A stretch of 64,000 nucleotides of DNA from Treponemataceae bacterium (GTDB lineage Bacteria; Spirochaetota; Spirochaetia; Treponematales; Rectinemataceae): contig CAXXVZ010000005.1 in the NCBI GenBank assembly GCA_963678065.2, positions 864,001 through 928,000 of the forward strand. Direction: 5' to 3'. The notes under the pieces were generated by a model. That model was not told the origin of the DNA. It made no database searches and saw only the letters and a list, made by a program, of their open reading frames with translations. Positions 1 to 60,530 of the stretch are shown here, piece by piece (positions within the stretch are counted from its first letter, which is position 1; each line of letters opens with the position of its first letter). Made by a program: the position numbers and the translations under genes.

Positions 1-757
1 TTGCGACGATGGCGCGAGCATCGGCGAACGCCATTGTGCCTGAGCGGAATGAGCGACAGCGAGTGGAGCGAATGGCCGAAGAGGGAGCCTGCGACCGATG
101 AGCGTGAACAGCGCTGTTAGTTGCAGTCGTGACCTTCAAGCGCGCTTGGATGGGGAGACTTGTCTCCTCATCCAATACTCTATCTTGCGCGCGTTCTTCT
201 CTTCCTCTTTTCTTAACCCTTATTTTTTTTCACGATTGCAACTAACGTTCTGCCTGTTTGCGACGATGGCGTGAGCATCGGCGAACGCCATTGTGCCTGA
301 GCGGAATGAGCAAAGCGAGTGTAGCGAATGGCCGAAGAGGGAGCCTGCGACCGATGAGCGTGAACAGCGCTGTTAGTTGCAGTCGTGACCTTCGAGCGCG
401 CTTGGATGAGGAGACTTGTCTCCCCATCCAATACTCTATCTTGCGCGCGTTCTTCTCTTCCTCTTTTCTTACCCTTATTTTTTTCTTTCACGATTGCAAC
501 TAACGTTCTGCCTGTTTGCGACGATGGCGCGAGCATCGGCGAGCGCCATTGTGCCTGAGCGGAATGAGCGCATGCGAGTGCAGCGAATAGCCGAAGAGGG
601 AGCCTGCGACCGATGAGCGTGAACAGCGCTGTTAGTTGCAGTCGTGACCTTCGAGCGCGCTTGGATGGGGAGACTTGTCTCCTCATCCAATACTATATCT
701 TGCGCGCGTTCTTCTCTTCCTCTTCTCTTACCCTTATTTTTCTCTTTCACGATTGCA
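1..757 (-). repeat. Small gene-less structured cassette (SNC), 3 tandem copies
   Basis: ~258 bp unit: a dedicated attC subtype plus a ~115 bp body AGTCGTGACC...TCACGATT. The first attC is truncated by the window edge. Confidence 0.9.
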
Positions 758-890
758 ACTAACGTTTCCGGCCTACGACGTTTGCGACCGCACAGGCGGG
801 CGCAAATGTGCCTGAGCGGAATGAGCGAATGCGAGTGAAGCGATGGCCGAAGAAGGAGCCGAAGGCGACTGATGAGCGTGGGCCGTGTTG

Positions 891-1892
891 TTATGCGCAG
901 TTATTTTTGAATATGTCATTAATAATATCAATCACTTCATTACTAAAACTATTTTGCTGATCTTCATTTATTATTATTTCCTTTTTTATTTTTACATAAA
1001 TCCAATCACTATCTTCGCAATACTCAAATCTCGAAGTATCAATATTCCAATTTTCATTTAGTGTATCTTTTTTCAGAGCGACACTAAGTATATATTCCCA
1101 ATATTGTGCGCCTTTATCTACCAAATTTAAATTCAAACCAATAAATATATCATCATTTTTTTTATACTTAATATATCGTCCTTTCGTTGTATCATCATAA
1201 AAATCATTAGCCCATGTTGATAACTCGAAATCCGATCCGATACCATCAATAATCATTTTCCCCGACTTCTCGACCAATTGAATAATCTTACACATAACCT
1301 TTAAAGATTCATGAATATCTTTTGGATTATAAAGCATAGCAACCTCATAAGGTGAAAGGATGGTATCAATTGATGATTTTATTATTAATTCTGATAACAG
1401 GTTTAGTGCTTCAGCTATAATATAAGAATCTTTTTGTAGATCATAACTGAACAAATATCTAATTAGGTCGTCCCAAATTACAATTTTAATAAACGAATAT
1501 TTTAATTTCGCATTTTCAATCTTATCTAGATGTTTATAGTTTTTAGGCAAAATAAATATTTGTCCTTTATAAGGCTTTTTACTATTTATTACCATTTCTG
1601 GATAACTATATATTTGATTGTCCTGCAATGGAGTGTCGATTCGAATTTTGTTTTCAATTAAGTAATAAGCTTTGCTATTAGTAATTACCAAATCAGGAAT
1701 GCCAGTATTATACCTTATCTGAGTAGAACAATGATTTAAATCTATAGAATCAATAGCATTCATATCTATTTTTAAATATGAAAATAATATATCTCTAAAA
1801 TATCTATATTTCAAAAGATTACATAAAATCTCTGTAGATGTATTTTCATCTTCTTTTGTTAGCCCATAAAATATTGATGTAGACCTATTCAT
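891..1892 (-). CDS. PD-(D/E)XK nuclease superfamily protein
   Basis: 333 aa; motif IPDLVI...YLIENKI; stop codon lies in attC R''. Confidence 0.75.
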   Translation of the reverse strand: MNRSTSIFYGLTKEDENTSTEILCNLLKYRYFRDILFSYLKIDMNAIDSIDLNHCSTQIRYNTGIPDLVITNSKAYYLIENKIRIDTPLQDNQIYSYPEMVINSKKPYKGQIFILPKNYKHLDKIENAKLKYSFIKIVIWDDLIRYLFSYDLQKDSYIIAEALNLLSELIIKSSIDTILSPYEVAMLYNPKDIHESLKVMCKIIQLVEKSGKMIIDGIGSDFELSTWANDFYDDTTKGRYIKYKKNDDIFIGLNLNLVDKGAQYWEYILSVALKKDTLNENWNIDTSRFEYCEDSDWIYVKIKKEIIINEDQQNSFSNEVIDIINDIFKNNCA

Positions 1893-2069
1893 ATAATATA
1901 TATATATCCTTCAAAAATAATTGCGCATAACGTTCGCCTGCCTACGACGTTGTGGCGAGCATCGGCGAGCCACAATGTGCCTGAGCAGAATGAGCGATAG
2001 CGAGTGCAGCGAAGGCCGAAGAAGGAGCCGATAGGCGACTGATGAGCGTGGGCAGTGCTGTTAGCCGCT

Positions 2070-2795
2070 TTAGCAAAAGATCCTATCCATATCCCCATTC
2101 TCTGATACTTTTTCTTTTTCTATCTTTCCGTTATTCCCATATACTATATACGCATTTTTACTTTTATCACTTCGGATTATCTGATAGCGATTATTCTCAA
2201 GTACCAATGCACAATTGTCTTCAATCCCAAGAACTTTTTTGTCATGTGTCTTCATAAACTCTATAAACTTTCCTTCCTGCTCTCGCGCGTTAAGATGAGG
2301 ACTATGACATCCACGCATTAGTCCAAGTCCATTTATATATGAATAATTCCATCCATCAGTATTTCCAAAACTTTCTGTATCACTAACTCCATACTCAAAC
2401 CAACATACTGATCCTGCACTTAATCCACTTAAAATAGTCCCTTTTTGAGATGCTTTTACTAGTAAATCTTGTATCCCATATTTTCTCCAAATATCCAACA
2501 TCATTTTCGTATCACCACCACCAACATATATAATATCTGCCATTTTTATTTTTGTTTCTATTTCACAATCATCAATATTTCTGTCCTTTAAACATAACAC
2601 ATCACAGTTACAGCCAAGTTTCTTACCATATACTTCTTGCACAGTCTGAATATATCCTTCCGGTTCTCCACTGGCTGTAGGAATAAAAAGATGGTGAGGA
2701 GATTTCTTTGAACACTTTTCGACAATATAACTATCGATCTCGAATGTTTCACCTGTGCGGATTTCTCCTCCACCAATGGCAATGATTATACTCAT
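2070..2795 (-). CDS. Peptidase E / peptidase S51 family
   Basis: 241 aa; motifs IAIGGG, FIPTAS, IYVGGGDT, GLSAGS; GAGG RBS. Confidence 0.9.
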   Translation of the reverse strand: MSIIIAIGGGEIRTGETFEIDSYIVEKCSKKSPHHLFIPTASGEPEGYIQTVQEVYGKKLGCNCDVLCLKDRNIDDCEIETKIKMADIIYVGGGDTKMMLDIWRKYGIQDLLVKASQKGTILSGLSAGSVCWFEYGVSDTESFGNTDGWNYSYINGLGLMRGCHSPHLNAREQEGKFIEFMKTHDKKVLGIEDNCALVLENNRYQIIRSDKSKNAYIVYGNNGKIEKEKVSENGDMDRIFC

Positions 2796-2828
2796 GTGGA
2801 ACTATTCCTCTCCATCTTTTGCTATTGC

Positions 2829-3085
2829 GGCTAACGTTCTGCCTGTTTACGACGATGGCGTGAGCATCGGCGAGCGCCATTGTGCCTGAGCGGAATGAGC
2901 GCATGCGAGTGCAGCGATGGCCGAAGAGGGAGCCTGCGACCGATGAGCGTGAACAGCGCTGTTAGTTGCAGTCGTGACCTTCGAGCGCGCTTGGATGGGG
3001 AGACTTGTCTCTCCATCCAATACTATATCTTGCGCGCGTTCTTCTCTTCCTCTTCTCTTACCCTTATTTTTTCTTTCACGATTGC
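2829..3085 (-). repeat. SNC, 1 copy
   Basis: Same ~258 bp unit. Confidence 0.9.
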
Positions 3086-3226
3086 AACTAACGTTCGCCT
3101 GCCTACGACGTTGTGGCGAGCATCGGCGAGCCACAATGTGCCTGAGCGGAATGAGCGCATGCGAGTGGAGCGATGGCCGAAGAAGGAGCCGATAGGCGAC
3201 TGATGAGCGTGGGCAGTGCTGTTAGG
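3086..3226 (-). repeat. attC: Representative attC site, major subtype
   Basis: + strand reads ACTAACGTTCGCC-TGCCTACG...CGTGGGCA-GTGCT-GTTAGGC. R and L boxes are complementary, with an internal hairpin TTGTGGCGAGC-ATCG-GCGAGCCACAA. Confidence 0.9.
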
Positions 3227-3257
3227 CGCTGGCTTTGCTCTTATTAAGATATACAAC

Positions 3258-6374: not shown

Positions 6375-6404
6375 TTGGTATTGGTTGCTATTTTGTCATC
6401 TTTC

Positions 6405-6662
6405 GCATAACGTTCTGCCTGTTTGCGACGATGGCGTGAGCATCGGCGAGCGCCATTGTGCCTGAGCGGAATGAGCGTATGCGAGTGGAGCGATGGCCGA
6501 AGAGGGAGCTTGCGACCGATGAGCGTGAACAGCGCTGTTAGTTGCAGTCGTGACCTTCGAGCGCGCTTGGATGGGGAGACTTGTCTCCTCATCCAATACT
6601 CTATCTTGCGCGCGTTCTTCTCTTCCTCTTCTCTTACCCTTATTTTTTTCTTTCACGATTGC
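6405..6662 (-). repeat. SNC, 1 copy
   Basis: Same unit. Confidence 0.9.
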
Positions 6663-6883
6663 AACTAACGTTTGCCTGCCTACGACGTTGTGGCGAGCAT
6701 CGGCGAGCCACAATGTGCCTGAATGGAACGAGCTCATGCGAGTGCAATGAAGGCCGAAGAAGGAGCCGACAGGCGACTGATGAGCGTGGGCAGTGCTGTT
6801 AGCCGATGTGCCCCGCTCTCCCATTGTTACACTTTTCACATTTTCATTTACAAAATATACTTTTTATATACTATCTTTAGTTC

Positions 6884-7144: not shown

Positions 7145-7146
7145 TT

Positions 7147-8453: not shown

Positions 8454-8710
8454 GGCTAACGTTTTGCCTGTTTGCGACGATGGCGCGAGCATCGGCGAGC
8501 GCCATTGTGCCTGAGCGGAATGAGCGCATGCGAGTGCAGCGATGGCCGAAGAGGGAGCTTGCGACCGATGAGCGTGAACAGCGCTGTTAGTTGCAGTCGT
8601 GACCTTCGAGCGCGCTTGGATGGGGAGACTTGTCTCCTCATCCAATGCTATATCTTGCGCGCGTTCTTCTCTTCCTCTTCTCTTAACCCTTATTTTTTTT
8701 TCACGATTGC
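8454..8710 (-). repeat. SNC, 1 copy
   Basis: Same unit. Confidence 0.9.
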
Positions 8711-8875
8711 AACTAACGTTCGCCTGCCTACGACGTTGTGGCGAGCATCGGCGAGCCACAATGTGCCTGAGCGGAATGAGCGCATGCGAGTGCAGCGATG
8801 GCCGAAGAAGGAGCCGATAGGCGACTGATGAGCGTGGGCAGTGCTGTTATGTGAAGTTTCCCCCGATCTTCAACC

Positions 8876-9328
8876 CTATTCCTTTATCTTTTCCTGTTTT
8901 TTATCTTTTATCTCATGCTTCATGATTTCCAAATATTCTTCTGCATTTACTATACTCATCTCCTTTCCAACATAATCATCCCCATTTCTTGTTATCAAAA
9001 CACTGATGCCATGTTCAAGTGCTGCATAATATTGTATTGCATCTTCTAGATCTTTGAACTTCGATGCCAATACCAAATCTATTATTTTTTCATCAACATT
9101 CACTAGTTTGGTTAATAATCTTAATTTTCGAAGATGCAGCAAGGCTAGTTCTTGCCCTAACCCTTTTTTCACTATGTAATACAAATTTGAAAATATCACA
9201 GGACTGATATACGCTTCAATTTTTCCCTTTTCTGCCAGTGAGAATAGTGTTGCTGCCGCTGGATAAAATGGCTGACGTTTCAGAAACATATCCAGGATGA
9301 TATCCGTATCGATAAATACCTTATTCAT
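8876..9328 (-). CDS. PIN domain toxin
   Basis: 150 aa; VFIDTDIILD, DLEDAIQY, LITRN. Confidence 0.88.
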   Translation of the reverse strand: MNKVFIDTDIILDMFLKRQPFYPAAATLFSLAEKGKIEAYISPVIFSNLYYIVKKGLGQELALLHLRKLRLLTKLVNVDEKIIDLVLASKFKDLEDAIQYYAALEHGISVLITRNGDDYVGKEMSIVNAEEYLEIMKHEIKDKKQEKIKE

Positions 9329-9570
9329 TTGTATTTATCCGTGAGATAGTCCACATATCCATCATCCATTGCCGAAATATCCACAGCATCAAGAATTCCA
9401 GATAATTCCATAACCAGAGGCGAATAGTGGGGTTCAGTTTTATCTTCAAGCGCAAGGATCTTGAAGTAGTCCTCAACTAATCGGGAAAGACTTCGTTTCC
9501 GTTTTTGAGCATATACTTTGGCGGTTTCTATTACTGTTTGATCCAGTTTGAGCGTCAGTTTTGTTTCCAT
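9325..9570 (-). CDS. Antitoxin (DUF6364-like, RHH)
   Basis: 81 aa; TKLTLKLD...AKVYA...SLSRLVEDYF; ATGA overlap with the PIN gene. Confidence 0.8.
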   Translation of the reverse strand: METKLTLKLDQTVIETAKVYAQKRKRSLSRLVEDYFKILALEDKTEPHYSPLVMELSGILDAVDISAMDDGYVDYLTDKYK

Positions 9571-9580: not shown

Positions 9581-9619
9581 AATACGTATAATACTAATAA
9601 ATAAAATACGTATTGTCAA
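9581..9619 (-). promoter_or_regulatory. Promoter with two palindromic operators
   Basis: TTGACA-17 bp-TAGTAT; AATACGTATT at 9605-9614 and AATACGTATA at 9581-9590. Confidence 0.65.
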
Positions 9620-9653
9620 TATCTTTCTCGTACTCTCTCTCGGGGGAAATTTC

Positions 9654-10168
9654 ACATAACGTTCTGCCTGTTTGCGACGATGGCGTGAGCATCGGCGAGC
9701 GCCATTGTGCCTGAGCGGAATGAGCGCATGCGAGTGCATGCGAATGGCCGAAGAGGGAGCCTGCGACCGATGAGCGTGAACAGCGCTGTTAGTTGCAGTC
9801 GTGACCTTCGAGCGCGCTTGGATGGGGAGACTTGTCTCCTCATCCAATGCTATATCTTGCGCGCGTTCTTCTCTTCCTCTTCTCTTACCCTTATTTTTTC
9901 TTTCACGATTGCAACTAACGTTCTGCCTGTTTGCGACGATGGCGCGAGCATCGGCGAGCGCCATTGTGCCTGAGCGGAATGAGCAAAGCGAGTGCAGCGA
10001 TGGCCGAAGAGGGAGCCTGCGACCGATGAGCGTGAACAGCGCTGTTAGTTGCAGTCGTGACCTTCGAGCGCGCTTGGATGGGGAGACTTGTCTCCCCATC
10101 CAATACTATATCTTGCGCGCGTTCTTCTCTTCCTCTTCTCTTACCCTTATTTTTTCTTTCACGATTGC
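9654..10168 (-). repeat. SNC, 2 tandem copies
   Basis: Same unit. Confidence 0.9.
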
Positions 10169-10301
10169 AACTAACGTTTCCGGCCTGCGACGTTTTGGCC
10201 CGCACAGGCGGGACAAAATGTGCCTGAATGGAACGAGCGAATGCGAGTGCAATGAAGGCCGAAGAAGGAGCCAAAGGCGACTGATGAGCGTGGGCCGCGG
10301 T

Positions 10302-10885
10302 GTTAGTTGCTGTGTTTGGGGGGCTCTTTTTCTTCCATTTTTTAAAACGTTTTCTCTTCTCTTACCCTGAGATCTTCATTCTCATAACTCTATAACCGAT
10401 ACTTTCAGAGCATTTATTTTATAGAGTTCTGAATCTTCAACTGTATAAATTGATTTTCCCTCTTTTTCTTTAAAATTCTCAAAACCTTTTTTTTAAATCT
10501 TCTACCATATTCCATAAATATTTTACCTGAAAACAAATATGCCTGATTCCTGTTTCAGAATCTTCATTTTTAAAGATCCCATTTTTTTAATTTTTGAGTT
10601 TGTAACTCGATTATACAATCATTGAGTTGTAGCCAGGTATTATTCGCTCTTCCATGAAATCCTGTAGTCTCATGAAGAATCTTAAATCCCAACATCTCAT
10701 ATTACTATGATATATTTTCATTATATCTATCAGTTTCTATGCAGACAGATAAAATGACTCAATCATTGAAGTTTCTCGAAAAATATCTTTTCTCTTGATC
10801 CCATATTCCCATGAGATATTTATAGCAAACAAAAATGATCTCACTCAGGATGCAAAATTTCCGCCCCCCAAATATTGCAACTAAC
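10302..10885 (-). other. Long gene-less cassette, family L1 copy 1
   Basis: ~580 bp between attC sites with no credible ORF; near-identical to 50193-50776. Confidence 0.75.
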
Positions 10886-11394
10886 GTTCTGCCTGTTTGC
10901 GACGATGGCGTGAGCATCGGCGAACGCCATTGTGCCTGAGCGGAATGAGCAGAGCGAGTGCAGCGATGGCCGAAGAGGGAGCCTGCGACCGATGAGCGTG
11001 AACAGCGCTGTTAGTTGCAGTCGTGACCTTCGAGCGCGCTTGGATGGGGAGACTTGTCTCCTCATCCAATACTCTATCTTGCGCGCGTTCTTCTCTTCCT
11101 CTTCTCTTACCCTTATCTTTTTCTTTCACGATTGCAACTAACGTTCTGCCTGTTTGCGACGATGGCGTGAGCATCGGCGAGCGCCATTGTGCCTGAGCGG
11201 AATGAGCGCATGCGAGTGTAGCGATGGCCGAAGAGGGAGCCTGCGACCGATGAGCGTGAACAGCGCTGTTAGTTGCAGTCGTGACCTTCGAGCGCGCTTG
11301 GATGGGGAGACTTGTCTCCTCATCCAATACTCTATCTTGCGCGCGTTCTTCTCTTTCTCTTTTCTTAACCCTTATTTTTCTCTTTCACGATTGC
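10879..11394 (-). repeat. SNC, 2 tandem copies
   Basis: Same unit. Confidence 0.9.
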
Positions 11395-11557
11395 AACTAA
11401 CGTTTGCCTGCCTACGACGTTGTGGCGAGCATCGGCGAGCCACAATGTGCCTGAGCGGAACGAGCGCAAGCGAGTGCAGCGATGGCCGAAGAAGGAGCCG
11501 CAGGCGACTGATGAGCGTGGGCAGTGCTGTTAGCGGCTGTTTTGCTGCGCTCTTCTC

Positions 11558-11968
11558 TTATCCTCTATATACCTTTATCTTCCCATGTTTTTCCATATTT
11601 TCAAAATCACTATCGTTATGCAGTACTGGTACTTTGGCCATATTTGCATACGTAGCTATTAGGCAATCATATGGTTTTCGTATCGTTACGCCTTTTTTTC
11701 TCAATCCTCTATACAGATCTATTGCATTTTTTGTCACTTCAAGAATATCAAAATCCAACATATGATAACTTTCCATAATCTCTTTCATATCTTTATACAC
11801 TTTTTCTTCTCGTATACCCTGTAAGATCTCTTGATATATTATAGGACATAGAATTATTTTCTGATTATTGAGTAACAGATCATGCAGCATATCTACTTCA
11901 GGTAGTGCTTCTTTAGTTTCACCAAAATATTCTATCCAGACTGACGTATCGACTACTACTCCTGTCAT
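11558..11968 (-). CDS. vapC: VapC PIN toxin
   Basis: 136 aa; VVDTSVWIEYF, EILQG, TIRKPYDCLIA, HNDSDF. Confidence 0.9.
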   Translation of the reverse strand: MTGVVVDTSVWIEYFGETKEALPEVDMLHDLLLNNQKIILCPIIYQEILQGIREEKVYKDMKEIMESYHMLDFDILEVTKNAIDLYRGLRKKGVTIRKPYDCLIATYANMAKVPVLHNDSDFENMEKHGKIKVYRG

Positions 11969-12159
11969 CTCATTGTTCTCATTTCTTCAAGATTTCCTTC
12001 CCAAATATTTTTTCCTCGATACTTTATTATTCTTTTCCGAGTATATGCCCGAATATATTCTTCAAGAGCCAGGTTGATAATAGCTTTTTTTGTTGTCACG
12101 CCACTAAGGTCCATAGCTTCCTTAACGAGAGTATCATCAAGTTCAATATTGGTTCTCAT
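11965..12159 (-). CDS. vapB: VapB antitoxin
   Basis: MRTNIELDDTLVKEAM; GGAGG RBS before ATG 12159. Confidence 0.88.
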   Translation of the reverse strand: MRTNIELDDTLVKEAMDLSGVTTKKAIINLALEEYIRAYTRKRIIKYRGKNIWEGNLEEMRTMR

Positions 12160-12440
12160 ACTAATCCTCCATACACATTTTATATATAATACATACACAT
12201 ACATGAGTCAAGACTTTAGTAAGTACATTTACAGGATAACACTATATTCAATCTGATCTCGCGCAGCAATATTGCCGCTAACGTTTGCCTGCCTACGACG
12301 TTGTGGCGAGCATCGGCGAGCCACAATGTGCCTGAGCGGAATGAGCGACAGCGAGTGAAGCGATGGCCGAAGAAGGAGCCGCAGGCGACTGATGAGCGTG
12401 GGCAGCGCTGTTAGGCGCAGTTCGAAAACATATTTTCAGA

Positions 12441-13305: not shown

Positions 13306-13562
13306 GCCTAACGTTTTGCCTGTTTGCGACGATGGCGCGAGCATCGGCGAGCGCCATTGTGCCTGAGCGGAATGAGCGCATGCGAGTGCAGCGAGGGCCG
13401 AAGAGGGAGCTTGCGACCGATGAGCGTGAACAGCGCTGTTAGTTGCAGTCGTGACCTTCGAGCGCGCTTGGATGGGGAGACTTGTCTCCTCATCCAATGC
13501 TATATCTTGCGCGCGTTCTTCTCTTCCTCTTCTCTTAACCCTTATTTTTTTTTCACGATTGC
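13306..13562 (-). repeat. SNC, 1 copy
   Basis: Same unit. Confidence 0.9.
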
Positions 13563-13755
13563 AACTAACGTTTGCCTGCCTACGACGTTGTGGCGAGCAT
13601 CGGCGAGCCACAATGTGCCTGAGCGCAATGAGCGATAGCGAGTGAAGCGAATGGCCGAAGAAGGAGCCGCAGGCGACTGATGAGCGTGGGCAGCGCTGTT
13701 AGGCGACGTGTTGTTTTGCGTCTTTTTAACTATTGTACAAATTTCATTTTTCTTA

Positions 13756-14817
13756 TTAATTTGAAGCAGTTGTTATGTTTCTATTTTTTTGCATAAATAA
13801 TTTTTCAACATTTTTCAATATCATCATTGGTAATTCTTTTATTAAAATATAATCATCTTTATTGTTCATAATGTAATCATCGTACATCATCATGTTTCTA
13901 TTATTCATTAATAATTCTTTAAATAAATAATAAACTTCTTTTGAATCTGTATCCGAATTATCATCGCAACTGTTAACTAAGTAATTACCTTCTTCATATA
14001 CCCACGGTAAAACTTCTTTATAAAAACTTAATCCTATCCTAATGCTTAATCTAGGATTTTCATTCATATGCATCATTTCTTCAATCATTCCAGGATGCAT
14101 TCGCCGTCTTCTCATTTTATTCTCATTATATGATATTTTATCTAACCTTGATGGAAGATCTTTGAACATTATTTTTATTTCTTCAAATAATTTTACAGAG
14201 GTATTTTCAATATCATTAACAACCATGTCCGTGGTTGTGGTTTTTGTTTTGCTTGTTGAGTCTAGTTTTTTAAGTATTTCTTGTATACTTGTCTTAAATT
14301 TTCCTACTTGGAATTTTATTGTGTCTTTATCAGGTTCAGAATTTGGGATTCTATTAACTAATTGAAAAACAAGTTTTGTTAATGAATCCTCATCATCAGC
14401 GCAGTTTTGAAACTGTGCGAATGGACCCGATGAAACATCTTTTAATTCAACACCCAGTGCAACCCCAAGAATTGGGGTGTCCAGCTTTCCTTTTGCCATA
14501 CCTGCTTCAAATAGTAGCCATGGTCTATCAATACTTCGTTTAGTTAATAAACATACCACATCTGAAGCACATTGAATGTTTTTTATAATTTCCGGATACC
14601 ATTCAATCCCATATTCAATTCCTTGATTTCCCTTTTTATCAGATGAGCGAAATGATTTTAAAACCCCAGCACTAACACTCTTTAATAGAGCACTAAAAGC
14701 TTCAGCTAATTCTGCATCTCTAGTGTCATGACTAATAAAAACTAAAGGATTAGTAGCTTTTGTCGTTGCAACTTCTTTTTCTTCATTACCCACAACATAC
14801 CCCTTGTTATTATTCAA
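13756..14817 (-). CDS. TIR domain-containing protein
   Basis: 353 aa; VFISHDTRD and SIDRPWLLFEAG, the latter with the typical catalytic Glu. Confidence 0.8.
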   Translation of the reverse strand: MNNNKGYVVGNEEKEVATTKATNPLVFISHDTRDAELAEAFSALLKSVSAGVLKSFRSSDKKGNQGIEYGIEWYPEIIKNIQCASDVVCLLTKRSIDRPWLLFEAGMAKGKLDTPILGVALGVELKDVSSGPFAQFQNCADDEDSLTKLVFQLVNRIPNSEPDKDTIKFQVGKFKTSIQEILKKLDSTSKTKTTTTDMVVNDIENTSVKLFEEIKIMFKDLPSRLDKISYNENKMRRRRMHPGMIEEMMHMNENPRLSIRIGLSFYKEVLPWVYEEGNYLVNSCDDNSDTDSKEVYYLFKELLMNNRNMMMYDDYIMNNKDDYILIKELPMMILKNVEKLFMQKNRNITTASN

Positions 14818-16111: not shown

Positions 16112-16370
16112 AGCTAACGTTCTGCCTGTTTGCGACGATGGCGTGAGCATCGGCGAGCGCCATTGTGCCTGAGCGGAATGAGCGCATGCGAGTGCAGCGA
16201 ATGGCCGAAGAGGGAGCCTGCGACCGATGAGCGTGAACAGCGCTGTTAGTTGCAGTCGTGACCTTCGAGCGCGCTTGGATGGGGAGACTTGTCTCCTCAT
16301 CCAATACTCTATCTTGCGCGCGTTCTTCTCTTCCTCTTCTCTTACCCTTATTTTTCTCTTTCACGATTGC
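16112..16370 (-). repeat. SNC, 1 copy
   Basis: Same unit. Confidence 0.9.
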
Positions 16371-16502
16371 AACTAACGTTTCCGGCCTGCGACGTTTTGG
16401 CCCGCATCGGCGGGACAAAATGTGTCTGAATGGAACGAGCGTATGCGAGTGGAATGAAGGCCGAAGAAGGAGCCAAAGGCGACTGATGAGCGTGGGCCGC
16501 GG

Positions 16503-17039
16503 TGTTATCTGCTTTGTTTTTGGGGCTCATCCATTTTCTTCTCTTCATTTAAAAACTTTTCTTTCTTACTTCTTCAATCTTGCCCTTATATCCTATATTT
16601 ATATACTTTATACAGATATCGAATATTTTAATTATCTATATTATAGTTATTTAGTAGTTTTTCTCATCAAATATTTTATTATTATATTTTAAGTCCATGA
16701 TTTTATGTAACAAGTATATATTACAGTATTAGCCAATACTATAAATTTCAATATTTATAATTTTCACCCAACAAAAAGATCAGCTTTGAAAGGTCCTTGT
16801 CTTCTCCTGGAATCCCATATTCAAGAATCCCATATTCAAGAATCCCATATTCAAGAATCCCATATTCAAGATTTTTAACTTCATGATCCCTAACATTTCA
16901 GAAACTATATATTTTCCCAAGAGATTAATACTGTATTAACAAAATATCTGGAATCTATGATTCTAGTTTTTAACAATTTGTCGTCATTCAGAATAACAAG
17001 GTTCAACAAAAGATCCGCCCCAAAAATATTGCAGATAAC
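16503..17039 (-). other. Long gene-less cassette, family L2
   Basis: ~535 bp AT-rich stretch with no credible ORF. Confidence 0.7.
16810..16869. repeat. Tandem repeat, 4 x 15 bp GAATCCCATATTCAA
   Basis: Four perfect copies read directly. Confidence 0.95.
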
Positions 17040-17290
17040 GTTTCCGGCCTGCGACGTTTTGTCCCGCATCGGCGGGACAAAATGTGCCTGAATGAAACGA
17101 GCGCATGCGAGTGCAATGAAGGCCGAAGAAGGAGCCACAGGCGACTGATGAGCGTGGGCAGTGCTGTTAGTTGCAGTCGTGACCTTCAAGCGCGCTTGGA
17201 TGGGGAGACTTGTCTCTCCATCCAATACTCTATCTTGCGCGCGTTCTTCTCTTCCTCTTTTCTTACCCTTATTTTTTCTTTCACGATTGC
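17033..17290 (-). repeat. SNC, 1 copy with a non-cognate attC
   Basis: SNC body at 17175-17288, but its attC is of the general subtype. Confidence 0.85.
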
Positions 17291-17424
17291 AACTAACGTA
17301 TGCCTGCCTACGACGTTTTGGCCCGCATCGGCGGGACAAAATGTGCTTGAGCGAAACGAGCGAATGCGAGTGAAGTGAAAGCCGAAGAAGGAGCCGAAGG
17401 CGACTGATGAGCGTGGGCAGCGCT

Positions 17425-17562
17425 GTTATATGCTGTCGCGATCTTGGTTTAGCGCACTGAAAGATGGTGGCTGGATGCCACCATTTTTCAAGGAACATCC
17501 TGTGCGCGTTCTTTCTTTATCTCCTCTTCACTTTAGATACATTCCTCGCGATTGCATATAAC
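17425..17562 (-). other. Diverged small gene-less cassette, structural homolog of SNC
   Basis: Same order of stems, 11 nt linker and pyrimidine tract as SNC, with a different sequence. Confidence 0.8.
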
Positions 17563-17811
17563 GTTCTGCCTGTTTGCGACGATGGCGCGAGCATCGGCGA
17601 GCGCCATTGTGCCTGAGCGGAATGAGCAAAGCGAGTGCAGCGATGGCCGAAGAGGGAGCCTGCGACCGATGAGCGTGAACAGCGCTGTTAGTTGCAGTCG
17701 TGACCTTCGAGCGCGCTTGGATGGGGAGACTTGTCTCCCCATCCAATACTATATCTTGCGCGCGTTCTTCTCTTCCTCTTCTCTTACCCTTATTTTTTCT
17801 TTCACGATTGC
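17556..17811 (-). repeat. SNC, 1 copy
   Basis: Same unit. Confidence 0.9.
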
Positions 17812-18373
17812 AACTAACGTATGCCTGCCTACGACGTTGTGGCGAGCATCGGCGAGCCACAATGTGCCTGAGCGGAATGAGCGCATGCGAGTGGAGTGAA
17901 GGCCGAAGAAGGAGCCGAAGGCGACTGATGAGCGTGGGCAGTGCTGTTAGGCGTAGTTATTTCCATCTTCATTCATTTATTCTACCCTATTCAATTCTCT
18001 TTTATCACGATTTTGAAATATTCTATCAGTGACAATACATCAGGTACAGAGAATACTGCCTTCTCTATTCTATTGTTCCTCGGATCTATTTCATATCCGT
18101 GGGCTTTATAAAATGATGCTTTTCGTAGATCTGCATTATGAAAAAGCGTTGTTCGGAAAAAGCTTCCTGTAAAGTCGGATTCAACAAGATAAGTATTCTG
18201 AAACGCACAATCTACTAGTTCACAGTGTACGAATTTACTTTTTTTCATTGATACATCAGTAAAGTTACAGGCAACTATCCTACATTCATCGAAATCCATA
18301 TCAAATGTTGTTTGATCACAATAGTAATAGTTTATACCTAATACTTTACTTTTAACAAACCTTACCCCTATAA

Positions 18374-22067: not shown

Positions 22068-22265
22068 ACCAATTCCTTTATTGTTGTGCGCCAGAACGTG
22101 TGCGTTTTGGGCAGTTGGGTACGCAATAGCAGCTAACGTTCGCCTGCCTACGACGTTGTGGCGAGCATCGGCGAGCCACAATGTGCCTGAATGGAGCGAG
22201 CGCATGCGAGTGCAATGAAGGCCGAAGAAGGAGCCGATAGGCGACTGATGAGCGTGGGCAGTGCT

Positions 22266-22896
22266 GTTATGTGCTGTGTTTTTGGGGCACACCCTGTGTC
22301 TTCTCTTCATTTCTATAATTCTTATTCCTTGGTTCTTTACTCTTAACCCTTTGTCTTTGCTTTTCAATACTTTATTCTAATACATAAGTATTTTATTTCT
22401 CTATACCATAGCTATTTATATACTTTGACCTTGCCTCTTTTATCGTATCCTGTTACCTATATATTTTATCCCTAACTTTATATTTATGGTTCGACTATTA
22501 TAGTTCAGTACACGTTTTTCGATGTTTCCAATTCAAAAATCTATCATTTTTACTCATAAACCATATAGTACATAATACCACTCAATATTTTTCTCTACTT
22601 CAAAATCACTTTTTTTGGATTCACCTATTTCATGGGACATATCTTATGAGAAAAATAGCAGCACCTTCGAAAAGCGTTTTGAACTCTATGATTATCCCAT
22701 ACTCAAGAATAGTATCTTTTATCTATACCATTTTTTGTACTGCACATACCAACAACACTGAATATGGCACTGATCCACAATTACTACAGGATTGTTCATA
22801 AACCCAATATCAAGAGATTCTATTTTTAAATACTATGATGTCATTCAGAATCATACAGTTCAGTAAGAGATCCGCCCCAAAAACATTGCACATAAC
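22266..22896 (-). other. Long gene-less cassette, family L3 copy 1
   Basis: ~630 bp with no credible ORF; homologous to 50906-51540 and 52538-53167. Confidence 0.75.
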
Positions 22897-24529: not shown

Positions 24530-24750
24530 AACTAACGTATGCCTGCCTGCGACGTTTTGGCCCGCATCGGCGGGACAAAATGTGCCTGAATGAAACGAGC
24601 GAATGCGAGTGGAATGAAGACCGAAGAAGGAGCCGAAGGCGACTGATGAGCGTGGGCAGCGCTGTTAGCTGCTTTACGAATCGCTCTTCATCAATATCTT
24701 TGTTTCTAATATTCGGAGCGCGCAGTGTACATGTAAATAGTTTTCTGTAT

Positions 24751-27042: not shown

Positions 27043-27178
27043 AACTAACGTTCGCCTGCCTACGACGTTGTGGCGAGCATCGGCGAGCCACAATGTGCCT
27101 GAGCGGAATGAGCGATAGCGAGTGCAGCGATGGCCGAAGAAGGAGCCGAAAGGCGACTGATGAGCGTGGGCAGTGCTG

Positions 27179-37209: not shown

Positions 37210-37466
37210 CATATAACGTTCTGCCTGTTTGCGACGATGGCGCGAGCATCGGCGAGCGCCATTGTGCCTGAGCGGAATGAGCAAAGCGAGTGCAGCGATG
37301 GCCGAAGAGGGAGCCTGCGACCGATGAGCGTGAACAGCGCTGTTAGTTGCAGTCGTGACCTTCGAGCGCGCTTGGATGGGGAGACTTGTCTCCCCATCCA
37401 ATACTATATCTTGCGCGCGTTCTTCTCTTCCTCTTCTCTTACCCTTATTTTTTCTTTCACGATTGC
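37210..37466 (-). repeat. SNC, 1 copy
   Basis: Same unit. Confidence 0.9.
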
Positions 37467-37627
37467 AACTAACGTTTGCCTGCCTGCGACGTTTTGGCCC
37501 GCATCGGCGGGACAAAATGTGCCTGAGCGGAACGAGCGAATGCGAGTGCAGCGATGGCCGAAGAAGGAGCCGAAGGCGACTGATGAGCGTGGGCAGCGCT
37601 GTTAGGCGCTGTGTTTTTGAAAATTAT

Positions 37628-38525: not shown

Positions 38526-38781
38526 GCCTAACGTTCTGCCTGTTTGCGACGATGGCGTGAGCATCGGCGAGCGCCATTGTGCCTGAGCGGAATGAGCAGA
38601 GCGAGTGCAGCGATGGCCGAAGAGGGAGCCTGCGACCGATGAGCGTGAACAGCGCTGTTAGTTGCAGTCGTGACCTTCGAGCGCGCTTGGATGGGGAGAC
38701 TTGTCTCCTCATCCAATACTCTATCTTGCGCGCGTTCTTCTCTTCCTCTTCTCTTACCCTTATTTTTTCTTTCACGATTGC
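38526..38781 (-). repeat. SNC, 1 copy
   Basis: Same unit. Confidence 0.9.
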
Positions 38782-38942
38782 AACTAACGTTCGCCTGCCT
38801 ACGACGTTGTGGCGAGCATCGGCGAGCCACAATGTGCCTGAGCGGAATGAGCGACAGCGAGTGCAGCGATGGCCGAAGAAGGAGCCGCAGGCGACTGATG
38901 AGCGTGGGCAGTGCTGTTAGGCGATGTGTGTGCGCGACTATC

Positions 38943-42360: not shown

Positions 42361-42616
42361 ACCTAACGTTCTGCCTGTTTGCGACGATGGCGCGAGCATC
42401 GGCGAGCGCCATTGTGCCTGAGCGGAATGAGCAAAGCGAGTGCAGCGATGGCCGAAGAGGGAGCCTGCGACCGATGAGCGTGAACAGCGCTGTTAGTTGC
42501 AGTCGTGACCTTCGAGCGCGCTTGGATGGGGAGACTTGTCTCCCCATCCAATACTATATCTTGCGCGCGTTCTTCTCTTCCTCTTCTCTTACCCTTATTT
42601 TTTCTTTCACGATTGC
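42361..42616 (-). repeat. SNC, 1 copy
   Basis: Same unit. Confidence 0.9.
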
Positions 42617-43025
42617 AACTAACGTTTCCGGCCTGCGACGTTTGCGACCGCATCGGCGGGCGCAAATGTGCCTGAATGGAACGAGCGTATGCGAGTGGAA
42701 TGAAGGCCGAAGAAGGAGCCGACAGGCGACTGATGAGCGTGGGCCGTGTTGTTATCTGCTTTTCGCCCCCTCTTCAAACCCTTTTTACCTTCTCTTCATC
42801 TTCCTCTTTTCTTCACCCTTTTACGTTTTTTTTTATCTTTATCCCCTATATGATTTTAGAACCATTCCATGGTTTTCAAAATTCTATTCGCAATAGTTTT
42901 GTTATAACCTATAATTTTCTTATTCCATTTTTAACAACTTTTTCACGTTTTCTTACCTTTATAAATTTCTTATCATTATACTTTATCTCTATCTAATATC
43001 TATAATTACTACCTATAGTATCTAT

Positions 43026-45808: not shown

Positions 45809-47047
45809 TTATTTGCCCCTCCACTTAAATGCCCTTCTATATCCCTCCATCTCAGCATCTGAAATATTATATTTGTAGATTATTTTATCACTATTTTTCA
45901 TAATGATATTATCATATTGTTGATCCATCGGGAGGTGATAAATAAAAGTCTTATTACCATAATCATCTCGTCCAATATGACACTTTATCATTGGGTAATC
46001 GGGAATATCTATATTCTCTTCGAATCTTACATTTAATGCATTTGCAAATGCCTTTGCGACACTAGATAATTCAGTATGAGTAATAAAATAACCTTTTATT
46101 GTTCTTTTTTCTTCAGGATGCTCAAGTTTATATAAAATAGTAGTTCCATACAATTGAGCTATATGTTTTTCATGAATCATTTTAGCTTTTGCCCAATACT
46201 TGCATTGAATTATTAATATTTCTTTTTCATTATGCGCAATTAAATCACGCCCTAAATCTTCAAGTTTTTTGTGTATTCCATAATATTCTACCAAATATTT
46301 ATTATTTTCAAACCTATATCCAATGTATCTTTCAAAATCTCTTCCAATTTCCCATCTCTTTTTTTTACGATTTTTGTATATTTCTAGAGCAAGAATACTT
46401 TTATCAACATTCGTAAGTTCTTTAAAATCTATACTATTATTTATTAATATTGTGTTTACTGTATCAATTTCATCATCAACAACTATATCTCGTTTTTCAC
46501 ATATATCATCAATATTATCTAGATCTGGAAACATGCTTCGAATATATTCTAATTCATATTCCAGTTCTTTATTTTTTTGGATTAATTCCTTTTTTTCAAT
46601 GCGAAGTTCTCTGACTTCTTTTGCCTTTTCAATTGCTGGTCTCTGTTTATTTTCCAAATATTCAGCTAAATACTCATCCTCTATAGTTTTCATATCAGAT
46701 ATTATGCCTGAAACCCACTTAAATGTTTTTGCTTTATCTTGAAAGACAGTATCCATATCAGAAGCAATTTTTTTCCGTACATTTATTCTTTCTTCTTTCA
46801 TTTTTGCAATATCCGCTACAAGTAACTGATATTGTTCTGATGCCTTTTTAATATTGTTTTCATACAAAGAGTCTTTGTTTTTTAACAATATTTCTACAGA
46901 TTTTACTTTTTCGTTTAATTCTCTAATGATTTTTTCATTCTCGCTCTTGATATTTTCTATTCTTTTTTCTGAATCTGAATTTGTCCTAACAATAAGGTAG
47001 AGCAAATATATAATTATAATAGCGCCTATAATATCATATATTTGCAT
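45809..47047 (-). CDS. Membrane-anchored coiled-coil protein with a Mrr-like restriction endonuclease domain
   Basis: N-terminal TM helix and coiled coil, then GRDFERY...DLGRDLI...IIQCKYW. Confidence 0.8.
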   Translation of the reverse strand: MQIYDIIGAIIIIYLLYLIVRTNSDSEKRIENIKSENEKIIRELNEKVKSVEILLKNKDSLYENNIKKASEQYQLLVADIAKMKEERINVRKKIASDMDTVFQDKAKTFKWVSGIISDMKTIEDEYLAEYLENKQRPAIEKAKEVRELRIEKKELIQKNKELEYELEYIRSMFPDLDNIDDICEKRDIVVDDEIDTVNTILINNSIDFKELTNVDKSILALEIYKNRKKKRWEIGRDFERYIGYRFENNKYLVEYYGIHKKLEDLGRDLIAHNEKEILIIQCKYWAKAKMIHEKHIAQLYGTTILYKLEHPEEKRTIKGYFITHTELSSVAKAFANALNVRFEENIDIPDYPMIKCHIGRDDYGNKTFIYHLPMDQQYDNIIMKNSDKIIYKYNISDAEMEGYRRAFKWRGK

Positions 47048-47279
47048 TAAATATCCTTTCCACATTATTTCGCCTAACGTTCGCCTGCCTACGACGTTGT
47101 GGCGAGCATCGGCGAGCCACAATGTGCCTGAGCGGAATGAGCGCATGCGAGTGCAGCGATGGCCGAAGAAGGAGCCGACAGGCGACTGATGAGCGTGGGC
47201 AGTGCTGTTAGCTGATGGTTTGCCCCCCATCTATATCTTTTCTTTTCCCTCTTCACCTTATTCATTGTTCTTCACTATC

Positions 47280-47940: not shown

Positions 47941-48198
47941 AGCTAACGTTCTGCCTGTTTGCGACGATGGCGCGAGCATCGGCGAGCGCCATTGTGCCTG
48001 AGCGGAATGAGCGACAGCGAGTGCAGCGATGGCCGAAGAGGGAGCTTGCGACCGATGAGCGTGAACAGCGCTGTTAGTTGCAGTCGTGACCTTCGAGCGC
48101 GCTTGGATGGGGAGACTTGTCTCCCCATCCAATGCTATATCTTGCGCGCGTTCTTCTCTTCCTCTTCTCTTACCCTTATTTTTTTCTTTCACGATTGC
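47941..48198 (-). repeat. SNC, 1 copy
   Basis: Same unit. Confidence 0.9.
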
Positions 48199-48425
48199 AA
48201 CTAACGTTTGCCTGCCTACGACGTTGTGGCGAGCATCGGCGAGCCACAATGTGCCTGAATGGAACGAGCGCATGCGAGTGTAATGAAGGCCGAAGAAGGA
48301 GCCAAAGGCGACTGATGAGCGTGGGCAGTGCTGTTAGGCGACGTTGTTCTGGGCGCTCTCCCTACCCTTTCGTTTATGTCGTCCTCGTCATACTGGCGAG
48401 GATGTTCAGTATTTATACAGTTCCT

Positions 48426-50038: not shown

Positions 50039-50192
50039 GTTTTTGTCCTTTGTGATTTCGCCTAACGTTTCCGGCCTGCGACGTTTTGGCCCGCACAGGC
50101 GGGACAAAATGTGCCTGAATGGAACGAGCGAATGCGAGTGCAATGAAGGCCGAAGAAGGAGCCAAAGGCGACTGATGAGCGTGGGCCGCGGT

Positions 50193-50776
50193 GTTAGTTG
50201 CTGTGTTTGGGGGGCTCTTTTTCTTCCATTTTTTAAAACGTTTTCTCTTCTCTTACCCTGAGATCTTCATTCTCATAACTCTATAACCGATACTTTCAGA
50301 GCATTTATTTTATAGAGTTCTGAATCTTCAACTGTATAAATTGATTTTCCCTCTTTTTCTTTAAAATTCTCAAAACCTTTTTTTTAAATCTTCTACCATA
50401 TTCCATAAATATTTTACCTGAAAACAAATATGCCTGATTCCTGTTTCAGAATCTTCATTTTTAAAGATTCCATTTTTTTAATTTTTGAGTTTGTAACTCG
50501 ATTATACAATCATTGAGTTTTAGCCAGGTATTATTCTCTTTTCCATGAAATCCTGTAGTCTCATGAAGAATCTCAAATCCCAACATTCTGCATTACTATG
50601 ATATACTTTCATTATATCTATCAGTTTCTATGCAGACAAATAAAATGACTCAATCATTGAAGTTTCTCGAAAAATATCTTTTCTCTTGATCCCATATTCC
50701 CATGAGATATTTATAGCAAACAAAAATGATCTCACTCAGGATGCAAAATTTCCGCCCCCCAAATATTGCAACTAAC
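50193..50776 (-). other. Long gene-less cassette, family L1 copy 2
   Basis: Near-identical to 10302-10885, including its attC. Confidence 0.75.
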
Positions 50777-50905
50777 GTTCGCCTGCCTGCGACGTTGTGG
50801 CGAGCATCGGCGAGCCACAATGTGCCTGAATGGAACGAGCGCATGCGAGTGCAATGAAGGGGCCGAAGAAGGAGCCAAAGGCGACTGATGAGCGTGGGCA
50901 GCGCT

Positions 50906-51540
50906 GTTATGTGCTGTGTTTTTGGGGCACACCTAGTTTCTTCTCTTCATTTCTATAATTCTTATTCCTTTGCTCTTTACTCTTAACCCTTTGTCTTTGC
51001 TTTTCAATACTTTATTCTAATACATAAGTATTTTATTTCTCTATACCATATTTATTTATATACTTTGACCTTGCCTCTTTTATTGTATTCTATTACCTAT
51101 ATATTTTATCCCTAACTTTATATTTATGGTTCGACTATTATAGTTCAGTACATGTTTTTTTGATGTTTCCAATTCAATAATCTACCATTTATACTCATAA
51201 ACCATATAGTACATAATGCCACTACTCAATATTCTTCTCTACTTCAAAAATCACTTTTTTTGGATCCACCTATTTCATGGCACATATCTCATGAGAAAAA
51301 TAGCAACACCTTAGAAAAGCGTTTTAAACTCCATGATTATCCCATATTCAAGAATAGTATTTTTATTTATACCATTTTTTGTACTGCACATACCAACAAC
51401 ACTGAATATAGCACTGATCCACAATTACTACAGGATTGTTTATTAACCCAATATCAGAAGATCCTATTTTTGAATACTCTGACGTCATTCAGGATCATAC
51501 AGTTTCGCACGAGATCCGCCCCAAAAACATTGCACATAAC
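50906..51540 (-). other. Long gene-less cassette, family L3 copy 2
   Basis: Homolog of 22266-22896. Confidence 0.75.
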
Positions 51541-52253: not shown

Positions 52254-52537
52254 AATAATTCCTTAAAAGAACAATACTGCATCACACAATCAAATAGTGC
52301 AAACCATATGTAAATTCACTATCCAAAGTCTCAAGCCGATACTACAGTTCATGCACTTTGAAAACAGTGGTATCGGCCTATCTGATCTCGGGGGGCAAAC
52401 TTTCAGCTAACGTTCGCCTGCCTACGACGTTGTGGCGAGCATCGGCGAGCCACAATGTGCCTGAGCGGAATGAGCGATAGCGAGTGCAGCGATGGCCGAA
52501 GAAGGAGCCGCAGGCGACTGATGAGCGTGGGCAGTGC

Positions 52538-53167
52538 TGTTATGTGCTGTGTTTTTGGGGCACACCCTGTGTCTTCTCTTCATTTCTATAATTCTTATTC
52601 CTTTACTCTTTACTCTTAACCCTTTATCTTTGCTTTTCAATACTTTATTCAGATACATAGGTACTTTATTTCTTTATACCATATTTATTTACTTTGACAG
52701 TGCCTCTTTTATTATATCCTATTACCTACATATTTTATCCCTAAATTTATATTTATGCTTTCGACTATTATAGTTCAGTACATGTTTTTTCGATGTTTCC
52801 AATTCAAAAACCTATCATTTTTACTTATAAACTATATAGTACATAATACCACTCAATATTTTTCTCTACTTCAAAATCACTTTTTTTTGGATTCACCTAT
52901 TTCATGGCACATATCTCATGAGAAAAATAGCAGCATCTTCGAAAGGCATTTTGAAATCCATGATAATCCCATACCCAGAAATCCTATTTTTTACCTATGA
53001 TATTTTTGTACTGCATATACTAACAACACTGAGTATAGCACTGATCCATAATTATTACAGGATTGTTTATTAACCCAATATCAGAAGATTCTATTTTAAA
53101 TACTCTGACGTCATTCAGAATCATACAGTTTCGCACGAGATCCGCCCCAAAAACATTGCACATAACG
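52538..53167 (-). other. Long gene-less cassette, family L3 copy 3
   Basis: Homolog of 22266-22896. Confidence 0.75.
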
Positions 53168-58525: not shown

Positions 58526-59106
58526 AGTTGTTTCAATTAGAGCCATGCTTCGGGCAATCAAACGATGAATACCTGGATCAGAGGTTTTTTGAGGTTTATA
58601 TATTGTGTTATGTGTCAGTTCACTATATGCATGTTGCAATATAGTCCGTACCTGTATCTCACACGAGATTCCTTTTTTTAAAACAATATCTCTACATATG
58701 ATATCGTTCTTTGGTCTCAAAATATAATGAACAGACTGGTACTCGAACTTTGTTGGATTTTTTCTTCGTTCATCTTCAAAATCTCTGTCGCAACTAAACG
58801 AAAATACATTCTGCTCTTCAATGATTTTTTTAAATTTCTTCAACCGATTTATTGTAAGAAATATAAAACGAATACCCACTTTATCAGTTATATCATTATA
58901 CGGATCGCTATAATTTTTTTCACGATAGAAAGCTTTTTGTATTAATGATTTTTCATCTTTTACTCGAAAACTAGGATCAATACAAAAATCGCTCTTACTC
59001 CCTTTATTCTCTGTCCATTTCAAAATTAAGAAATCTCTTACATACTCTCCTAACCCAGCATACATACTTTTTTCTTTTTTGAATTTATCAACAAAGTCGT
59101 TCTCTA

Positions 59107-60247
59107 TCATACTTTTTGATCCTCAATTTTTCCTTTTATAGCTACAGTAGTTTCAGTTTGATCCGAAGAAATTATACGAATAACATCCGACAAAGAACCA
59201 CCGACTCTTAATATTTTTACTCCACTAGAAAATCTAATATTTCTTCTACGAAGCTTATTCTTTATTAGGCTCAAATCCTTAACTATTCCCTGTTCTGGAT
59301 AATGCGATACACGCATATAGGCTAGATATTTGTCCCTATGCCTAATTTGAAGATTTGCCTCTGCAAATTCCTTTACACCAATAGTAGTCGCAACTTCATT
59401 TCGTAGATACCCATACAAACTATCTTGATAGTTTAGTTTTACTGTAAGCTCACTATCCAAATCATTGATATATTCTCTTGTAAGTAAGTAAAATTGCTGT
59501 GTTTGAGCTTTATTACTTTCAGCTATTTTGCATCCTAAAAAACCAAAATAAAAATATTTAGCCGCTTGCGTTGATTCAGAACGAGTCATATTGTGATCAT
59601 ATATAAAGGCATCATAGGCATCATTGTTAGCAATAAAAAACCCTATTTTGTATAATTTTTGTTGCGGGGTAAGAAATAGGTCAGCTAAATATTCGATAGT
59701 CAGATTTCCAGAAAAACCAGATTTATGAAAACCAGTATGTACTTCAGCTTTTACTAACGCACAACATTTCTTGCTAGATGCCCCAATGGTACCAATAATT
59801 ACTGCTAATATTCCTCCAGGTATTTTTCTAGAAATTTGAGCCATAGAAAGCTTTTCTGCAAATTCTTTAGAATGTACTACATAGTCAGTTTCGCCACAAC
59901 TCAATATATTTACGACTGTTTGATAAACACTATCAGTCTTCTTATCAACTATATCCATTTGAATACAGTGAGAGTTATTTCCTAACGCATCAACAATTCG
60001 TTTCTCTAGCGTTTCAATCCCTTTGCTATCTAGGGGAGCAACTGTATTACTAAAATGCGGTATAGTCGGTTTATCTGTATCATCTCTTTGCATACTAATT
60101 CTTTCGTATTTAGCACAACATGACTTATGAATTTACCTTGTATTCATTGGGTAATATTGTAACTCACGTTGTCATACTAATGAAAGATTTAGTAACTTCA
60201 TGAAAAATAATTTTTCCAATTCGAAAATTTTCAAAAAATTGTGACAT
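59107..60247 (-). pseudogene. Nucleoid-associated (YejK/NdpA-like) protein interrupted by a MITE
   Basis: Removing the MITE restores MSQFFENFRIGKIIFHEV-MQRDD... (346 aa). Family call rests on IIFHEV, PGGILAV, ALVKAE, KLYKIG, AKYFYFGFLGC. Confidence 0.7.
60095..60192 (+). mobile_element. 98 bp MITE with TA target duplication
   Basis: Nearly identical to 33321-33418; TA at 60093-60094 and 60193-60194. Confidence 0.92.
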
Positions 60248-60273
60248 GTTTTTCTCCTTTTCTGAGCTATTTC

Positions 60274-60530
60274 GCCTAACGTTCTGCCTGTTTACGACGA
60301 TGGCGTGAGCATCGGCGAGCGCCATTGTGCCTGAGCGGAATGAGCGCATGCGAGTGCAGCGATGGCCGAAGAGGGAGCCTGCGACCGATGAGCGTGAACA
60401 GCGCTGTTAGTTGCAGTCGTGACCTTCGAGCGCGCTTGGATGGGGAGACTTGTCTCTCCATCCAATACTATATCTTGCGCGCGTTCTTCTCTTCCTCTTC
60501 TCTTACCCTTATTTTTTCTTTCACGATTGC
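60274..60530 (-). repeat. SNC, 1 copy
   Basis: Same unit. Confidence 0.9.

Follow-up and report, generated by a model that had tools for sequence, protein, structure and literature searches.

The 64,000-nucleotide stretch analysed here (the window) comes from the genome of a Treponemataceae bacterium, designated G000 (GenBank assembly GCA_963678065.2, contig CAXXVZ010000005.1; window G000:C5:864001-928000), and lies within a large integron-like cassette array. The array occupies about 754-932 kb of C5 and is read on the minus strand, with 174 hairpin sites overall, of which 76 attC-like sites fall in the window. Some 3.6-5 kb past the right end of the window lie an attI-like junction (C5:931571) and a co-oriented gene for a tyrosine recombinase of 393 residues (C5:931895-933076, minus strand; L005:1183-2364). 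Our subject is a short repeated member of this array, here called the E cassette: like other gene-less cassettes it carries no gene, has GTT/AAC cores at its ends and brings a hairpin site of its own. Its copies, and the parts of one example copy, are given below in window coordinates, together with one cassette of a sister family, F.

1-64000, minus strand: host array
1-763, minus strand: run of three E cassettes (bodies 116-246, 372-504 and 631-763); an attC-like site lies left of each body on the plus strand, the first beginning 10 bp before the window
2836-3092, minus strand: E cassette, same sequence as the copies at 29618 and 60281
6412-6669, minus strand: E cassette
8461-8717, minus strand: E cassette
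9661-10175, minus strand: two E cassettes (9661-9919 and 9920-10175)
9661-9787, minus strand: example E-type attC-like site; right spacer of 8 nt in 48 sites, L box without extra base
9788-9804, plus strand: example arm of the outer stem P1 (17 bp, pairs with 9903-9919), with GTT/AAC cores
9812-9864, plus strand: example inner stem P2 (6 bp, 9812-9817 with 9859-9864), enclosing P3 and a linker
9818-9847, plus strand: example hairpin P3 (14 bp, 2-nt loop), followed by the 11-nt linker at 9848-9858
9865-9902, plus strand: example unpaired tract (34-41 nt), pyrimidine-rich on this strand (top strand 92% purine)
10886-11401, minus strand: two E cassettes
13313-13569, minus strand: E cassette
16119-16377, minus strand: E cassette
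17040-17297, minus strand: E body with the common, non-E attC subtype
17298-17562, minus strand: F cassette (gene-less, 138-bp body, ordinary attC subtype)
17563-17818, minus strand: E cassette, one of five copies that are identical though far apart
23766-24536, minus strand: three E cassettes, all different
26534-27049, minus strand: two E cassettes
28020-28277, minus strand: E cassette
29360-29874, minus strand: two E cassettes
37218-37473, minus strand: E cassette
38533-38788, minus strand: E cassette
42368-42623, minus strand: E cassette
47948-48205, minus strand: E cassette
60281-60537, minus strand: E cassette

A sequence-only reading of the window had described 27 copies of a ~258-bp cassette in 19 runs of one to three, with 22 copies in the first 30 kb, and these counts hold: each of the three motifs that it quoted occurs 27 times, and the unit measures 256-259 bp. 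In the window, 27 of the 76 cassettes that start there are E; in the whole array the share is 52 of 174 (30%), the window holding half of the family. In bases, E amounts to ~8% of the whole array. Fifty copies are intact and two have an interrupted site. E occupies array positions 1, 3 and 9, the first cassette after the attI-like junction, ~320 bp downstream of the recombinase, being an E. No open reading frame (ORF) is conserved, as had been claimed: the longest in copy 1 has 33 codons even with GTG and TTG starts allowed, and ORFs with ATG starts range from 0 to 32 codons among the copies listed and are not common to them.

The nested fold attributed to E was also borne out, with z scores of -8.1 (DNA, plus strand), -11.1 (RNA, plus strand) and -6.1 (RNA, minus strand), none of 200 shuffles being as stable in any of the three. 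The fold does lie on the plus strand, but as the top strand of the cassette is the minus strand, the strand described is the cassette's bottom strand. Its layout comprises the 17-bp P1, unpaired segments of 7 nt and ~39 nt, the 6-bp P2, the 11-nt linker and the 14-bp P3. Several details needed revision. The body, put at ~115 bp, is 131-134 bp in the window once the end stems are counted; the 14-bp hairpin is present but perfect in only 15 of 52 copies; and the outer stem, although real, is not special to E: terminal stems of at least 17 bp are found at 80 of 90 distinct cassette starts. Part of the 'nested palindrome' is thus a trait of nearly every cassette in the array. The interior fold is specific, with a z score of -9.0 for E after removal of P1, compared with +1.4 to -1.6 in three longer non-coding families. 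P1 and P2 show no variation in any of the 52 E copies, and the tract has 19 variants. Of the 37 imperfect P3 copies, 36 remain paired on the bottom strand alone, through a G-T wobble where the top strand has a mismatch; stem variants thus favour the bottom, recombining strand.

Two further gene-less families in the array, F (three copies in the genome) and G (one copy), retain this layout at 39-43% divergence from E (43% for F), and the lengths of P2, P3 and the loops are kept across ~40% divergence. In an alignment of 12 E, F and G sequences, 99% of the cells pair, against 28-48% in slid controls, and 10 of 14 P3 pairs have changed on both sides, a covariation that involves three lineages only. 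The presence of two gene-less families that share the nested fold of E at ~40% divergence, with compensatory changes, is new.

E is confined to this array as far as the searches reach. Searched with a covariance model, the genome gave 56 strong matches (52 E and four relatives), every one of them within the array, and no E copy lies elsewhere in G000, as dispersal in the manner of repetitive extragenic palindromes or miniature inverted-repeat transposable elements would have it. A separate contig, from a metagenome, has an E-E tandem following a cassette that precedes a coding cassette in G000, and cassette order in the locus L069 differs from that in G000. Plasmid, phage and viral collections gave no match to E, and a degenerate E/F/G pattern found four metagenome loci (three by chance, one a near-identical E-E) and no viral loci. 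DNA searches of 401 genomes of the order, with the best two candidates scored per genome, returned only short matches or matches to part of attC. The model R1, applied to overlapping sets of 68 family and 150 order genomes, mostly fragmented, with the best 22-49 candidates per genome scored, found no full-length match outside G000 and a single weak match of 38 nt, in G019. Rfam gave nothing for the window at the gathering threshold, and two chance matches at an E-value of 0.58.

As the earlier reading noted, 26 of the 27 window copies use a dedicated attC subtype, the exception being the copy at 17040-17297, and across the array the subtype is private, with all 49 sites that have the E-type left arm following an E body. 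The right half of the E-type site is found in only one coding cassette and the E end arms in none. Sites that look chimeric or swapped occur at C5 cassettes 56 (the copy at 17040-17297), 127 and 130, which suggests homologous exchange within the conserved central part of the site. Cassette end stems have a median of 21 bp array-wide (90 distinct starts) and commonly contain an internal mismatch, a bottom-strand G-T wobble at position 11 in 80 of 90; AAGA directly precedes the 3' end stem in 51 of 90 cassettes, against a background of 12%. The AAGA motif and the conserved stem mismatch at positions 10-11 are possibly part of the recombinase site. For comparison, the genome has a second, canonical co-oriented integron (G000:C3:96956-124712; L001, L155) with at least 10 sites of another type. 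Cassette ends match at a median of 20 of 22 positions in the host array (87 starts) and at 9-12 of 22 in the C3 integron (7 of 10 cassettes parsed), and the L-box extra base, judged in the best register, is missing in 167 of 169 array sites and present in six of six in the C3 control array. Further C3-type sites were seen at C3:823 kb, C3:2366-2370 kb and C2:660 kb; a faint resemblance to HARP is seen at the N-terminus of the C3 IntI, and cassettes of the C3 integron start with small GC hairpins.

The adjacent recombinase, which from its position probably acts on the array, has invariant catalytic residues (R248, K273, H337, R340, H363 and Y372) and a weak HARP match of 24.8 bits (cut-off 25). 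It lacks the IntI insertion of ~35 residues, seen as a gap in the alignment to the genome's own IntI; the catalytic K is separated from the HxxRH motif by 64 residues, compared with 106 in that IntI; and TIGR02249 scores it at 197 bits, below the cut-off of 265. It is thus not an IntI, the enzyme that the earlier reading suggested E might exploit. Of eight homologous loci inspected by eye in relatives, five show a cassette-like start just downstream. G039 has an array, as do three of seven more distant chained loci (L074, L080 and L081), all Bacteroidota. A scan of genome contigs with the recombinase alignment returned generic Xer motifs, with no close host-array relatives among the matches listed. 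In L014 a hairpin site stands directly next to the recombinase homologue and is followed by an oppositely oriented gene, unlike in other relatives. With replication orientation taken from the position of dnaA (GC skew being too noisy), the bottom strand would be the leading-strand template, an orientation linked to large stable arrays (PMC5371416).

The copies of E bear the marks of repeated arrival rather than local duplication. The 50 intact copies comprise 40 distinct sequences. Identical copies sit at distant points of the array, most of them beside unrelated cassettes, and the four-gamete test fails for 67 of 105 site pairs. Tandem duplication was rejected because E-E adjacency is at chance (15 against 15.3 expected) and neighbouring copies differ like random pairs (9.4 against 9.6; 13 pairs, P = 0.42; distance tests left out two copies with foreign or chimeric sites); preferential insertion of E beside itself was rejected too. 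E density varies mildly along the array (P = 0.03), and the leader length of neighbours downstream of E is unbiased (30 against 73 cassettes, P = 0.33). This pattern fits independent insertions from what would be a mixed pool, with putative recombination between copies. Among the 92 families of the array E is the largest, the next largest having seven members, and none of 20,000 neutral simulations reached 52 copies (maximum 29), so E must have an advantage of some kind. The description of E as an apparently mobile, over-amplified gene-less unit is supported, and the unit is real, non-neutral and well defined.

We give roughly even chances to the view that E is a low-cost passenger favoured by its mobility or its persistence, amplified by repeated insertion of single units and not by a need of the cell. 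Of the four roles proposed by the sequence-only reading, the 'selfish minimal cassette' appears to be the best. When the bottom strand becomes single-stranded, the two inner stems would bring the 17-bp ends of E together locally; pairing of a lone E's own ends, at the cost of both neighbouring crossover cores, is predicted above 0.5 in 23 of 24 copies. Coding cassettes folded whole behave similarly (13 of 14), E being distinct in that its pairing spans ~130 nt. An excised 258-nt circle would become a near-rod with its crossover site fully paired, and predicted site pairing is full at E-E junctions and in circles (0.93-0.94; circle median 0.94). The insertion-less recombinase next to the array may excise E and insert it at the attI-like site, homologous recombination perhaps mixing the copies. 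The end-paired geometry could pre-form a junction, such that one exchange would yield a circle, or it could lock the sites. Since excision followed by re-insertion in a single lineage would bring no net gain, a gain would likely require either that E is lost more slowly than coding cassettes or that it arrives with DNA taken up from siblings. Recruitment of cassettes from transformed single-stranded DNA (ssDNA) has been shown for Vibrio integrons (PMC12614218), and G000 has a competence-family (ComEC-type) gene. A fuller version would make E the gene-less parasite of a second, insertion-less integron class, in which inverted ends of ~21 bp form a four-way junction resolved by the Xer-like, HARP-bearing recombinase. 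E would then be the minimal self-assembling substrate (end stem, ~40-nt unpaired fork and closing hairpin), its tuned site subtype giving drive through uptake of sibling DNA; taken as a whole this version is rather unlikely.

Several observations weigh against a passenger cassette. F and G, with three copies and one, are not amplified despite having the fold and size of E, and copy number therefore needs more than the fold to explain it. That P2, P3 and the loops have kept their lengths at ~40% divergence could just as well reflect a host function. For the two sites flanking a lone E, folding seldom predicts the canonical recombinogenic form (medians 2e-4 and 2e-5), and by the standard model its excision would then be lowered; coding cassettes folded whole show the same, with values of at most 0.008 in 13 of 14, so that the effect is not unique to E. 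The fourth arm of the junction is predicted above 0.1 in only six of 24 copies, and pfold is described as not limiting for ssDNA substrates in PMC12614218. Gene conversion could be the source of identical distant copies, and C-to-T mutation on exposed ssDNA, not selection, could lie behind the wobble bias.

One alternative, which we consider unlikely, is that E is selected for a role in transcription, as a promoter inside the array or by insulating it as an antisense terminator or Rho-loading site. A C/U-rich, G-poor tract is a feature of rut sites, and the plus strand of E offers a rut-like arrangement of a hairpin followed by such a tract, in a genome that has rho. A promoter or terminator role found no backing in the four E copies at 9600-11500, which have no sigma-70 consensus and no intrinsic-terminator consensus (a GC-rich hairpin with a U run immediately after it). 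A TATAGT-like hexamer is present in just 14 of 52 E copies and in none of F or G, tandem copies are not depleted, and neighbours are unbiased; the promoter scan may nevertheless miss the promoters of this host, because it found none between the recombinase and attI either. Promoter activity of gene-less cassettes has been reported in Vibrionaceae and in Treponema (Blanco et al. 10.1101/2023.11.21.568050; Tansirichaiya et al. PMC6557892). It is rather more doubtful that E is a lock or decoy selected by the host, sequestering neighbouring crossover cores or soaking up recombinase and so slowing the loss of useful cassettes. Predicted core pairing with 140-nt flanks has medians of 5e-6 and 2e-5 beside lone E (35 sites each) and of 0.035 between coding cassettes (83 sites), yet this comparison takes both ends of E and one end of the coding cassette, and coding cassettes folded whole behave alike. 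E itself appears mobile, and a six-copy coding family sits after an E in four of its six places, neither of which suits a lock.

The covarying P3 pairs would also suit E, F and G encoding either a structured non-coding RNA or a site at which an RNase III-type enzyme processes the array transcript, and a small RNA from an integron cassette is known (sRNA-Xcc1, cited in PMC6557892). E sequence occurs in contigs of two metatranscriptome runs of one study (X1 and X2), in which strand and level are not readable. We nonetheless hold such an RNA to be improbable: Rfam offers no match, boundary signals were not found, and stem variants break sense-strand pairs and keep antisense-strand pairs. Palindromes can moreover correct themselves, and over three lineages this mechanism could produce the covariation. 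Besides E, the X1 and X2 contigs include some of the flanking chromosomal genes but neither the recombinase nor the majority of unique coding cassettes, a contrast that cannot rank expression and may reflect different strains (runs compared: 4 of the 12 listed). In X2, one 287-nt contig leads from an E across its site and into the start of another E with a 30-nt overlap, which suits a tandem pair and a circle equally well. The idea of a blank scaffold for making new coding cassettes, for which one might cite the short purine motifs of coding-cassette stem bases (AAGA) in the tract and linker of E, is very improbable, given that the E-type left arm comes with an E body in 49 of 49 sites and that no coding cassette has E end arms. 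Least credible of all is that assembly error or local tandem duplication produced the copies. Repeats of 257 bp that are nearly identical and sometimes adjacent would invite that suspicion, but sequence diversity (40 of 50 distinct, with no excess similarity between neighbours), the E-E pair on an independent contig and contig depth in a short-read run from this organism (237-3055 over E bodies against ~29-37 for single-copy DNA) all speak against it; this depth does not equal copy number, and the run may be the assembly's own source.

High-copy gene-less cassettes, and the question of whether they are selfish or regulatory, are already published for Vibrio vulnificus, where non-coding families reach 45 of 219 and 34 of 187 cassettes (Boucher et al. 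2006, PMC1382264) and where selfish, promoter and RNA roles, as well as gene conversion, were proposed. As there, one gene-less family dominates a large array. The available text of PMC1382264 describes no fold for the Vibrio cassettes, unlike the conserved fold of E, and most of them have close homologs in other species, whereas E was not found in the other species searched; E further differs in being short, in covarying with two sister families and in having a private site subtype. Promoter-bearing gene-less cassettes resemble E in lacking ORFs within a chromosomal array, and differ from the four E copies scanned, which have no promoter consensus. sRNA-Xcc1 likewise is an ORF-less cassette with possible RNA structure, while E has no Rfam similarity and a fold that favours the antisense strand. 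With canonical integrons, including the co-oriented 'reverse' integrons of Treponema (PMC3607928; see also PMC8618304), the host array has in common a co-oriented gene for a tyrosine recombinase, an attI-like junction, GTT/AAC-bounded hairpin sites and cargo such as GNAT, VapB/PIN pairs, TIR and Mrr; the IntI insertion and the L-box extra base are theirs and absent here. Neither the fold of E nor an insertion-less system of this size was found described in a literature search whose coverage mostly excluded subscription papers and supplements. For Tenacibaculum, arrays of this kind were not confirmed, two papers containing no mention of integron, palindrome, recombinase or cassette and a third reporting no integrons in its strain.

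What is new is the combination of a conserved fold with an unusual recombinase that has no IntI insertion and sites that have no canonical L-box extra base. The question whether non-coding cassettes of high copy number are selfish or of use dates from 2006, and this array provides a natural control set, with E (52 copies), F (3) and G (1) alike in size and fold and different in site subtype. Swaps of body and site among the three would directly probe the driver of amplification, and the 258-bp E substrate would be a handy tool for studying an insertion-less recombinase on sites without the extra base.

Other features of the array and its relatives complete the description. Cargo in the window includes TIR, AlbA_2, Mrr and PIN-type toxin-antitoxin genes (13756-14817, 24751-25587, 45809-47230, 11558-12204 and 8876-9570), and transposases (DDE_Tnp_1, ISL3) break cassettes at 18452, 31780 and 57295. 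Three longer AT-rich families without a long ORF (507-635 bp), which show no significant internal fold, are candidates for promoter cassettes; they lie in the window as follows.

52412-53166, 50777-51540 and 22138-22896: AT-rich family of seven members
50067-50776 and 10176-10885: AT-rich family of two members
16378-17039: AT-rich family of two members

A different, apparently gene-less cassette of 299 bp with a long internal stem was seen at L156:2595-2893 (G173:C3), its second copy truncated at the contig end, and another unit, of 298 bp, at L051:19382-19679. In coding cassettes of relatives (L054:14890-19961, L052, L010 and L012), short GC-rich hairpins recur in the leader as well as in the trailer.

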